Source of the DNA: Candidatus Hadarchaeota archaeon
GTDB lineage: Archaea > Hadarchaeota > Hadarchaeia > Hadarchaeales > JAWBSP01
Direction of reading: 5' to 3'
Assembly (NCBI GenBank): GCA_964474885.1
Contig: CAYYWO010000007.1
Span: 1 to 50,736, forward strand
Length of the DNA stretch: 50,736 bases
A program made the position numbers and the translations under genes. Below are positions 1 to 50,736 of this stretch, piece by piece. Every line of letters begins with the position of its first letter. Within the stretch, counting starts at the first letter, position 1. The notes below the pieces were generated by a model, which did no database searches, was not told the DNA's origin, and saw nothing but the letters and a program-made list of their open reading frames with translations.

Positions 1-55
1 CTGGCTCTCCCGCCACGGGCCGCCCCGTCAACCGGCCTCATGCGGGTTTGAGTGC
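1..55. repeat. 55-bp perfect inverted repeat with the last 55 bp of the window
   Basis: 1-55 is the exact reverse complement of 50682-50736; identity stops at 56/50681. Confidence 0.98.
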
Positions 56-109
56 CCCCGGGCATGATGACTACCTGCAAGCCTCACCCGTCAGGGTGGG
101 GTAGTTGAC
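1..109 (-). mobile_element. Terminus of an IS200/IS605-superfamily element (HEARO/omegaRNA-like structured end), running off the left window edge
   Basis: Minus strand from 109 reads GTCAACTAC-CCCACCC-tgac-GGGTGAG-GCTTG...GGTTGAC: a subterminal hairpin plus an internal GTTGAC (plus 27-32) complementary to the terminal GTCAAC. A second diverged copy sits at 50624-50736. No nuclease or transposase gene lies inside the window. Confidence 0.72.
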
Positions 110-4823: not shown

Positions 4824-6188
4824 TTGATGCCGAAGCTTTTCGGGACTTTCGGAGTTCGCGGAATAGCGAACAAGGATTTGACTCCCGAGATCGCATTCGA
4901 GCTGGGGATCTCTCTAGCCACTTACTTGGGGAACCGCGGGAAGGTGGCGGTCGGGCACGACAATCGGACTTCCAGCGAAATGCTGGAGAACGCTTGCATC
5001 TCTGGATTGCTGAGCGGTGGATGCGATGTGATCCGCTTGGGCACAGTTCCAACCCCGGTTCTCTCTTTTGCTGTCAAATTTTTCGACTGCTCGGCTGGAG
5101 TGATCATCACGGCCTCGCACAATCCGCCGGAATGGAACGGCATAAAGTTCTGGAAGGAGGACGGGGGCAGCTTCCCGCACTCGGAGGAGCTGGAGATCGA
5201 GCGGATGATACAGCAGAAATCTTGGAAGATGGCCGAGTGGCAGAAGGTTGGCCGAACGAGGAGGGTGGATGCTCTCTCCCCCTACCTCGAGAACTTGCTG
5301 GAAAGGATCCCCCAGCTCGATCGGAAGCTGAAGATTGTGGTGGATTGCGCAAATGCAACCGGAAGTCTGATAACTCCACGCATGTTGAGGCAGCTGGGGT
5401 GCGAAGTCGTGTCGCTCAACTGCCAGATGGATCCAACTTTCCCCGGCAGACTCCCTGAGCCAACCCCCGAAAACCTGGCCGACCTCTGCTCCATGGTGAG
5501 GAGCACGGGTGCCGATGTGGGCGTGGCTCAGGATGGGGATGCCGACAGAGCCGTCGTGGTGGATGAGCAGGGCAGGGTACTGATGGGGGACAGGACCTTC
5601 GCCCTAGTCACCCAGCATTACTTAAAGGGAAGGGAGCACCCGAGGATAGTCACCACGGTTGCGACGAGTAGCGTCATGGATGAAGTTGCGAGGAAGCTGG
5701 GAGGGGAGATCATCAGAACCAGAGTCGGGGAACCTGAAATAGTGACCGAGATCAGGCAGAACGGAGGGGACATAGGAGGGGAGGAAAACGGCGGGACGAT
5801 CTTCGTGGATTGGACTCTGGCCCGCGATGGCATCATGACCATAGGCCAGTTTGTTTCCTTACTGTCCTCCAGCGGCTTGAAAGTAACGGAGCTGGATTCT
5901 ATGTTGCCCAAGTTCCACCAGCGAAAAGCGAAGGTTAAGTGCCCGAACGAGTTCAAGGAGGAAGTCCTGAGGAGGTTGAAGGAGAAGTTCTCCGGCTACA
6001 AGTTGAACACGATCGATGGCATCCGTGTAGACTTTGCTGACGGTTCTTGGCTTCTCATTCGCCCCTCGGGGACCGAACCCATCTACAGGTGCTTCTCGGA
6101 GGCCAAGGATCCCTCCAGGGCGGATGAGCTGGTGAACTGGGGCCTCCAAGTCTTGCAGGAGATCAAGGGAGAGCTGGGTCTTCCATGA
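4824..6188 (+). CDS. Alpha-D-phosphohexomutase (PGM/PMM/GlmM family)
   Basis: LFGTFGVRG, TASHNP phosphoserine loop, DGDADR metal loop, GEENGG and RPSGTEP. Confidence 0.93.
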   Translation: MMPKLFGTFGVRGIANKDLTPEIAFELGISLATYLGNRGKVAVGHDNRTSSEMLENACISGLLSGGCDVIRLGTVPTPVLSFAVKFFDCSAGVIITASHNPPEWNGIKFWKEDGGSFPHSEELEIERMIQQKSWKMAEWQKVGRTRRVDALSPYLENLLERIPQLDRKLKIVVDCANATGSLITPRMLRQLGCEVVSLNCQMDPTFPGRLPEPTPENLADLCSMVRSTGADVGVAQDGDADRAVVVDEQGRVLMGDRTFALVTQHYLKGREHPRIVTTVATSSVMDEVARKLGGEIIRTRVGEPEIVTEIRQNGGDIGGEENGGTIFVDWTLARDGIMTIGQFVSLLSSSGLKVTELDSMLPKFHQRKAKVKCPNEFKEEVLRRLKEKFSGYKLNTIDGIRVDFADGSWLLIRPSGTEPIYRCFSEAKDPSRADELVNWGLQVLQEIKGELGLP

Positions 6189-50303: not shown

Positions 50304-50660
50304 ATGAATGTCTTGAAGGCCCTCTGTCAGGTGGAGAGGCTGCAGCTGTTAGAGGCATTGAGCCAGGGCCCCCTGCCTCTCTCGGCCCTGAAGCAGGCAA
50401 TGGGAAAGCCGTACTCGGTGCTCCTGTACCACCTCAGGGTCCTGCAGCGAGCGGGCCTGGTCGATCTGATCAGGCTAAAGCCGAAGCTGACGGTCGCCTA
50501 CTTGAAGCGTCACGTCGAGATCCACTGGAAGTGCGGGGAGAAGCCGAAGGTCCTCACGAAGCCCCTCCCCCCGCCAGCCGAAAGCGAGCTGGTGCTGACC
50601 TACTGGCGTCTGCTGGTGAGAAGGTCAACTACCCCACCCAACGATGGGGTTTGCAGGTGA
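50304..50660 (+). CDS. ArsR-like winged-helix transcriptional regulator
   Basis: LKAL....RLQLL..L..GP, YHLRVLQRAGLV. The C-terminal STTPPNDGVCR is encoded by the mobile-element end. Confidence 0.82.
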   Translation: MNVLKALCQVERLQLLEALSQGPLPLSALKQAMGKPYSVLLYHLRVLQRAGLVDLIRLKPKLTVAYLKRHVEIHWKCGEKPKVLTKPLPPPAESELVLTYWRLLVRRSTTPPNDGVCR

Positions 50661-50736
50661 TCATGGTGCTCGAAACTCATCGCACTCAAACCCGCATGAG
50701 GCCGGTTGACGGGGCGGCCCGTGGCGGGAGAGCCAG
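50624..50736 (+). mobile_element. Second copy of the IS200/IS605-type (HEARO/omegaRNA-like) terminus, running off the right window edge
   Basis: GTCAACTACCCCACCC is identical to the left copy; hairpin CCCCACC-caac-GATGGGG; TTGCAGGT; GTTGAC at 50705-50710; the last 55 bp are identical to the left copy. Confidence 0.72.
50682..50736. repeat. 55-bp perfect inverted repeat of positions 1-55
   Basis: Direct comparison of both ends. Confidence 0.98.

Follow-up and report, generated by a model that had tools for sequence, protein, structure and literature searches.

Insertion sequences of the IS200/IS605 family insert as single-stranded DNA directly 3' of a TAM that stays beside the left end of the element, and no target duplication is produced. 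The Y1 transposase TnpA moves the element, in single-stranded form, to the site 3' of this TAM.

Several described systems are close to the locus analysed here. The IS605B and ISC elements have the target N^ATGA (a caret marks the junction throughout), 5'-GT termini and an antisense tnpB, e.g., IS605B-1_MA and ISC1-1_MA (Kapitonov, Makarova and Koonin 2016, PMC4810608). The main text of that article contains the word "codon" 0 times, and placement at start or stop codons and a donated protein tail are absent from it. TTCAT is the TAM of IscB in ISGst5, and TTTAT is the TAM of TnpB in ISGst2 (Meers et al. 2023, 10.1101/2023.03.14.532601). PATEs, known from haloarchaea, are IS605-type elements with internal deletions (Dyall-Smith et al. 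2011, PMC3119063). In Borrelia, IS605 stem-loops overlap the 3' end of lipoprotein genes (Delihas 2009, PMC2775950). A keyword search of the open-access subset of the literature found no account of start or stop codon placement of N^ATGA or TTCAT elements, which is not proof of absence.

The two contig ends described here are the right ends of a new archaeal member of the IS200/IS605 family (TnpB-only) with a known target specificity. As described for IS605B/ISC elements, insertion is exactly 5' of ATGA, there is no target duplication, and tnpB runs antisense to the ATGA-reading strand, with hairpins predicted in subterminal positions; the terminus at the upstream flank starts with GT as in ISC1-1_MA, i.e., GTCA.. 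in that element and GTCAAC here (PMC4810608). The host differs from those of the IS605B/ISC examples given there in being archaeal (Hadesarchaea), and the likeness is one of target and end features, not of sequence relatedness. ISGst5 has the same 5-base TAM 5' of its left end. However, it is a bacterial element with IscB, whereas here a TnpB is the putative nuclease and the TAM begins with C or T. The model taken here by analogy is the one proposed for ISGst5 and ISGst2, in which TnpA performs excision and insertion and RNA-guided re-cutting takes place at the empty TAM-plus-flank site (10.1101/2023.03.14.532601). Core-deleted copies of 280–289 nt and 916 nt in a related genome resemble PATEs, but they are from another host lineage and the short copies keep the whole predicted guide-RNA scaffold region (PMC3119063). 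In the Borrelia case an IS605 end that includes a stem-loop likewise overlaps the last bases of a host coding region; there the overlap is between 8 nt of coding sequence and the left-flank similarity, and the gene keeps its own TAA, whereas here the stop is replaced and residues are added (PMC2775950).

Contig ends and junctions

The window, i.e., the whole 50,736 nt stretch that was analysed, is the entire contig C7 of MAG G000, an assembly of 1.18 Mb in 60 contigs that is 92% complete. Both ends of the contig carry the same terminus. Positions 1–109 and 50624–50736 represent the right ends (RE) of two copies of the element. At the plus-strand end the sequence reads ...CTG GTG AGA AG^G TCA ACT ACC CCA CCC AAC GAT GGG GTT TGC AGG TGA, and the junction, which is in an ArsR-type gene, is between positions 50623 and 50624. 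The minus strand of the left contig end reads ...ATG CTC GA^G TCA ACT ACC CCA CCC TGA, with the junction between positions 110 and 109 in a Lon-like gene. Both junctions come after the second base of a codon, and each splits the last sense codon of the host gene.

The two contig ends can be aligned over ~113 nt, in which 16 identical bases are followed by ~40 diverged bases and then by 55 identical bases. Blastn of one end against the other gives 82.6% over 115 columns (E=1e-25), and as judged from sequence comparison the ~113-nt alignment is not due to chance. The shared 12-mer alone is weak evidence, as it has 2 matches in the window and 2 are also found in 4 of 100 shuffles. The other contig ends in the assembly also show overlaps of exactly 55 bases. 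The final identical block has this same length, which implies that the contig stops where the assembler met a repeat.

The junctions are real and are not assembly artefacts, because three metagenome contigs (L018, L022 and L023) run across them into the element and Logan contigs from two runs (X1, possibly the source run, and X2) cross the same junctions in the same way. The original observation was that two copies of an element sit at the last codon of unrelated genes, in the same phase, and provide an STTPP tail; the independent contigs confirm these junctions.

In the MAG, the terminus is present as two RE only, and there is one left end (LE), located on contig C22. The RE of copy 1, a predicted guide-RNA scaffold region, is at positions 1–109 on the plus strand. 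Its element strand is the plus strand of the window, ends with ...GGGTGGGGTAGTTGAC at position 109 and is cut by the contig end. Contig L018 extends this copy, at the Lon site, into the 3' part of tnpB. The RE of copy 2 is at positions 50624–50736 on the minus strand, which is its element strand, and continues via L022 into C22.

The Lon-site insertion is also represented in L018 (positions 149–261, corresponding to window positions 1–109), where 291 of 291 aligned flank bases are identical. Within ~23 nt, the RE hairpin of L018 differs from that of the window by three substitutions and two deletions, one of 3 nt and one of 1 nt, and the tail reads STTP followed by a stop. This hairpin difference could be due to a mutation hotspot, copy-to-copy conversion or a chimeric assembly.

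Element identity and structure

In G016, a related genome from the same order, the 113-nt end finds 8 matches. A longer query gives 23 matching pieces, including 16 distinct junctions that start with GTCAAC. The complete copies in G016 are of two kinds: three are 280–289 nt and consist of the fused ends only, and two are 916 nt and have an internally deleted tnpB. The 916-nt copies have an ORF on the opposite strand that is directed at the GTCAAC junction. In contig L022 the ArsR copy of the window continues for a further 955 nt, and the C-terminal part of TnpB is encoded there on the opposite strand. Since tnpB reads toward the GTCAAC junction, the GTCAAC end is the RE, and the element strand is ...GGGTAGTTGAC-3'. 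The 3' tnpB part on L022 matches PF07282 (Cas12f1-like TNB / OrfB Zn ribbon) with E=2.8e-17, and PDB chains of TnpB/Cas12f match the element protein with E values of 5e-13 to 1e-7. The 5' tnpB part scores 24.7 bits with PF01385, which is under the cut-off of 30.5.

Contig L022 matches C22 positions 5822–6178 at 100%, and this places the left end of the ArsR copy on C22. The whole copy is ~1,267 nt and its tnpB starts 116 nt from the left end. In G000 the tnpB of this copy (C22, L056:1617–2168) has an in-frame stop after ..LHITV. The tnpB at L022:216–1192 has a frameshift in addition to the in-frame stop. The ArsR-site copy looks decayed in the lineage of the window, while the RE and the host tail persist. 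No tnpA is present inside the element. A profile search with PF01797 found no Y1 transposase in G000, at its 92% completeness, or in G002, a genome of the same genus. The same profile gives 4 matches in G016, with 2 over the cut-off, one of which has a stop. The copies in G000 are probably now immobile, given a tnpB with a stop and no Y1 transposase found.

The flanks of the 5 complete copies share nothing, i.e., there is no target-site duplication. Minimum-energy DNA folds display hairpins just inside the ends in 6 of 6 ends, and the RE hairpin is 8–9 nt from the tip. The hairpin energies are no different from those of shuffled sequences (z from -1.2 to +0.4, not significant). Stem sequences vary from copy to copy but remain able to pair, and an alignment-based fold shows only 3 pairs that are changed on both sides. 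The subterminal RE hairpin of copy 1 is CACCC-GTCA-GGGTG in the minimum-energy fold (positions 85–98, plus strand), and its loop holds the host-frame stop TGA (positions 91–93, minus strand). In copy 2 the hairpin of the centroid fold is at positions 50631–50650 on the minus strand; its stem and loop are unlike those of copy 1, and the loop lacks an in-frame stop. The short copies retain the RE region, which is conserved. Rfam searches of the window at gathering thresholds reveal three tRNAs only, and four element loci gave no match at E<=1.

An internal GTCAAC, within CCGTCAACCGGCC, is also present in both RE (window positions 50665–50670 compared with the terminal 50624–50629, and likewise 63–68 compared with 104–109). 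It is complementary to the terminal GTTGAC of the element strand, and neither sequence varies among the 10 aligned ends. A long-range stem between the internal GTCAAC and the terminal GTTGAC is predicted by RNAalifold, with no covariation.

A second subfamily in G016 is found at contig ends (L045–L053; e.g., L045:1–127). It has 9 junctions with the same 32-nt RE tip and a different interior. Eight of these junctions are identical over 127 nt up to the contig end, i.e., they have been collapsed by the assembler; neither left ends nor a tnpB of this subfamily were obtained.

Target motif and empty sites

On the host-gene strand the left end finishes with ..GCGGTGGTC(G/A)AG. A search of G016 and G000 with the LE 12-mer reveals 14 places, 10 of which have left-end sequence upstream; the other 4 are chance matches. 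ATGA[AG] directly follows 9 of the 10 true LE junctions, as ATGAAG in four, ATGAAA in three, ATGAGC in one and ATGAGG in one. No motif is common to the RE flanks among 18 junctions. The presence of ATGA[AG] at the LE, together with the lack of an RE motif and of a duplication, shows that the motif on the element strand is YTCAT and precedes the left end on its 5' side, as is usual for IS200/IS605 elements. A target of N^ATGA, with YTCAT as the TAM on the element strand, is a specificity already published for IS605B/ISC elements.

The sole one of the 10 termini without the motif (L055, G016 contig C1, positions 61617–61628) is left-end-like and is followed by AAAG. It may be a rearranged or decayed copy. 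Two left-end remnants of ~100–120 nt in G016 (L057 and L061) have no matching right end nearby, and the DNA that adjoins L061 has a fragment that by eye is TnpB N-terminal-like, in the opposite orientation. These two loci may represent nested or rearranged elements. A 74-aa fragment at L057 was considered as a recombinase remnant; it has no Pfam match and the idea was dropped.

Two genomes of the same genus, G001 and G002, lack the element and provide the corresponding unoccupied sequences. The Lon-like gene of G002 ends with ..ATG CTG GAA TGA ATC, i.e., GGA^ATGAAT, which is Glu-stop. The ArsR gene ends with ..GTG AAA AAA TGA GGC in G002 and with ..AGA AAA TGA GGA in G001, which is Lys-stop in both. 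The ATG of this ATGA starts a signal-peptide gene in G002, and the same overlap with the signal-peptide gene start is present in G001. Alignments of the Lon and ArsR proteins with the sister species both stop at the junction residue. Among the Lon-like homologues in relatives, 16 of 19 end one residue after ..ML, at the junction codon (15 with Glu and 1 with Gly); the remaining 3 have 2–3 residues.

On C22 in G000, ..GGTGGTCAAG is directly followed by ATGAGGTGGCTG, which represents the far end of the ArsR copy abutting ATGAGG. The sequence that follows this junction, ATGAGGTGG, opens the orthologue of the downstream gene of the sister species. Since the left end abuts ATGAGG, the empty ArsR site in G000 was AGA AG^A TGA, Arg-stop. 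The joined flanks give the sister-species pattern NN^ATGA. Searches of the MAG did not reveal the far end of the Lon copy, and tblastx with the downstream region of the sister species gave nothing. Six public runs have part of the stretch. The contigs of the 4 examined contain no joints and no empty allele of the species itself (2 cross the occupied junction and 2 end before it).

It had been proposed from the two window sites that the target is ATGA or ATAA on the host-gene strand. Both the LE flanks (9 of 10) and the sister-species Lon and ArsR sites agree with ATGA. The predicted empty alleles, Glu-stop for the Lon site and Arg-stop for the ArsR site, correspond to GA^A TGA in the sister species and to AG^A TGA as read from the C22 flank, with Lys-stop in the sister species at the latter site. 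Homologues were expected to end at the junction, and do so exactly in 16 of 19 Lon-like proteins and in the sister ArsR alignments. The motif sought beside the far end of the element is the ATGAGG at the left end of the ArsR copy.

Host genes and donated tails

The Lon-like host ORF is at positions 91–915 on the minus strand and has a Lon_C domain (Pfam, E=2.3e-11). It ends with LE-STTPP and a stop. The last 19 nt of this ORF (positions 109 to 91, with the stop at 91–93 included) are element-derived. The split last sense codon, GA^G (Glu), is at positions 109–111 on the minus strand and takes its third base from the element; the empty allele of the sister species is GA^A followed by TGA. The ArsR-type HTH host ORF is at positions 50304–50660 on the plus strand (Pfam HTH_20/HTH_5) and ends with RR-STTPPNDGVCR and a stop, bases 50624–50660 being element-derived. 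Its split last sense codon, AG^G (Arg), is at positions 50622–50624 on the plus strand and also has its third base from the element, the empty site being AG^ATGA.

The STTPP tail is the RE tip read backwards, with its two prolines encoded by the C-rich arm of the RE hairpin. The hairpin loop supplies the stop, as TAA in G016 and as TGA in the Lon copy; the loop of the ArsR copy has no stop. The only effect on the junction codon is that XYA becomes XYG, a synonymous change in 5 of 5 phase-2 cases.

Placement at start and stop codons

The tally comprises 18 RE junctions (2 in G000 and 16 in G016) and 10 LE junctions from these two genomes. A host ORF of at least 100 codons enters the RE in phase 2 at 5 of the 18 junctions, with the tail STTPP and stop in four and STTPPNDGVCR and stop in one. 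At one junction the host ORF, aroE, enters in phase 0 and its tail is VNYPSLKDGLAG followed by a stop. The host stop is 0–1 nt before the junction at two others, where the host's own stop is kept, and no host ORF runs in at the remaining 10. At the LE, the ATG of ATGA[AG] opens an ORF of at least 140 codons in 8 of the 9 junctions that have this motif. The site between aroE and tyrA (G016, L031:1–1500, L067) is in phase 0, not 2, and has a 12-residue tail; in relatives, GGA TGA AG is the overlap with tyrA in 3 of 4. To account for the aroE phase in G016, one must assume that 1 nt changed at a later time or that the ancestral end was different.

Five of the 8 downstream ORFs have a Pfam match that begins at profile position 1–4 and within the first 16 residues. 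These genes are a P-loop ATPase, a Tsr3-like gene, a topoisomerase, a prephenate dehydrogenase and a metallo-beta-lactamase-fold gene. Because the matches begin at the profile start, the ATGs of these five genes represent native N-termini.

The background was taken from G000 with a crude ORF caller, while most junctions are from G016; in this background, 16.2% of 5,130 ATGAR sites open at least 140 codons and 4.2% close at least 100 codons. Crude classes of 5,421 sites in G000 give 4,327 inside genes, 833 intergenic, 199 at starts and 119 at stops, with 57 counted as both. The binomial p for starts (8 of 10) is 1.6e-5 compared with all sites, and 4e-5 to 4e-4 compared with sites outside gene interiors. 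For stops (5 of 18) the corresponding values are 7e-4 and 0.04, the latter being marginal. The start excess is strong against the null that excludes gene interiors, and simple survivorship therefore may not explain everything. Gene starts are a commoner site than stops, and stop/start overlaps are a subset.

The proposal that the element targets stop codons holds at both window sites but is overstated, in that only 5 of 18 RE replace a stop and 8 of 10 LE are at gene starts. The shared phase extends to the five phase-2 junctions; it does not extend to the phase 0 junction, the two that keep their own stop, or the ten that have no host ORF. A replacement stop supplied by the element, also proposed, is seen after STTPP and after STTPPNDGVCR. 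The suggestion that the element could be transcribed from the host mRNA fails, as tnpB is on the strand opposite both flanking host genes. With tnpB antisense to these genes, read-through from the host yields antisense RNA, and no tnpB mRNA or guide RNA.

Proposed explanation and alternatives

The contig ends are very probably the RE of a TnpB-only IS200/IS605 insertion sequence (IS1341/'IS605B') located at N^ATGA, and the placement at gene boundaries would be due mainly to the TAM and to survivorship. The element sits at N^ATGA on the host-gene strand, with tnpB antisense to the host gene. ATGA can be read as a TGA stop plus an ATG start, and gene ends and gene starts are among the sites that lie outside gene interiors. 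The 4-base stop/start overlap of neighbouring genes combines the TGA stop and the ATG start in one site. At both window sites the TGA was the host stop, and at the ArsR site the ATG was also the start of the next gene. After insertion, the last codon has as its third base the G with which the RE begins, in place of the A of ATGA. The host frame then reads the RE tip as S-T-T-P-P through the C-rich hairpin arm, and a stop follows in or just after the loop. The downstream gene keeps its ATG directly against the left end. The gene-boundary placement probably results mainly from TAM composition and from the loss of insertions inside genes. In the model for this type of system, a TnpB-type nuclease with an RNA from the RE and the adjoining flank re-cuts the empty TAM-plus-flank site (10.1101/2023.03.14.532601). 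For the element described here, the predicted guide would be the reverse complement of the last codons of the host gene.

It is possible, though doubtful, that the element ends are in addition adapted to gene junctions; such adaptation adds to the main explanation and does not exclude it. Selection would then retain the RE tip for its ability to end the interrupted frame after a few codons. The left tip, GGTGGTC(G/A)AG^ATG on the host strand, would be a putative Shine-Dalgarno-like site, perhaps with an outward promoter, for the abutting gene, and insertion into an operon junction would then be nearly neutral. In both genomes the LE puts GGTG at -10 from the host ATG, and the 16S rRNA of the MAG has the 3' end ..GATCACCTCC. 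Among 556 high-confidence starts, GGTG has a peak at -11 to -8 (38, compared with 2–5 at most other positions); however, this is only ~7% of the native starts tested, which points to a modest use of Shine-Dalgarno sites. The native Shine-Dalgarno sequence is displaced in at least two cases, GGAGGTA^ATG of the topoisomerase gene and GGAGG inside aroE in relatives, and 8 of 8 downstream genes are still open despite diverged MITE copies. The GGTG of the left tip fits a substitute ribosome-binding site but stays a putative one, because the same bases also serve transposition. The LE and RE bases are needed for transposition in any case, and their conservation needs no host-side reason.

The right side presents a similarly mixed picture. 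The G016 form of the RE loop contains an in-frame stop, as do 2 of 3 forms of the lineage of the window, and the variant hairpin at the Lon site still yields STTP and a stop. On the other hand, the ArsR copy has no loop stop and runs for 11 codons, and the phase-1 frame is open for at least 25 codons. The start-codon excess, which survives the survivorship null, is in favor of adapted ends, but the tally is from two genomes. A more complete form of adaptation is somewhat less probable again. This would be a junction-adapted transposon with a TAM that is the reverse complement of the commonest operon junction (ATGA), a right tip that closes the frame and a left tip that supplies a spaced ribosome-binding site and perhaps a promoter. 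As read from sequence features, such an element would be near-costless inside operons, even before essential genes.

An alternative is that a further feature, in addition to the 5-base TAM, guides insertion to gene starts or junctions; candidates are a longer motif (CTTCAT, which corresponds to Met-Lys) and exposed single-stranded DNA at initiation regions. This is unlikely. The 9 ATGA-flanked LE junctions among the 10 true ones include 4 with ATGAAG and 3 with ATGAAA, but when junctions and empty sites are compared, any of G, A, C and T can be the sixth base. The start excess stands over both nulls, but ATGAR is found at 32% of the high-confidence starts in G000 anyway. We know of no mechanism that directs IS200/IS605 insertion to gene starts.

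The notion that the STTPP tail belongs to the host proteins themselves, or arose as a chimera when the contig ends were assembled, can be set aside almost with certainty, since the position of both copies at contig ends and the last 55 bases with the length of the assembler overlap are its only attractions, and it is already contradicted by homologues that end at the junction, by independent contigs that cross the junctions and by the same terminus beside 16 unrelated sites in G016.

Distribution

Among 65 genomes of the class, the RE-tip pattern matches only G016; G000 has its own loop variant, which is outside the pattern. The LE pattern has matches in 42 of 66 genomes of the phylum, and the one locus inspected in each of 30 other genomes is a chance match in every case. 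Chance matches to the LE pattern are inside coding sequence, typically ..AVVE/K... A scan of a collection of genome contigs shows 5 loci, and a single Hadesarchaea MAG, which corresponds to G016, accounts for all of them. A scan of a collection of metagenome contigs shows 9 loci, of which 5 represent sites already seen in G000 or G016 and 4 are due to chance.

The element is found only in G000 and G016, which represent different families of the order, and the search of 65 genomes of the class did not find it in their closer relatives. Such patchiness suggests that the element has spread or been transferred recently.

Implications

An IS200/IS605 insertion at N^ATGA explains an otherwise odd tail on two unrelated proteins. 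It also provides a natural example of the effect on insertion sites of a TAM that holds both a stop and a start codon. The element is found at gene boundaries, often exactly in the 4-base stop/start overlap, where the upstream protein is only tailed and the downstream ORF is intact. The additions beyond the known specificity are modest: starts are used more than stops, overlaps are a special case, and the ends may replace displaced translation signals.

For annotation, C-terminal STTPP-like tails and displaced ribosome-binding sites in these archaea should be viewed as transposon-derived. For the biology of TnpB, the junctions offer a candidate set of natural TAM/guide/target triples from an uncultured archaeal lineage. 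If it is true that the ends substitute for translation signals, IS200/IS605 elements would have a new means of surviving at low cost where genomes are very compact.
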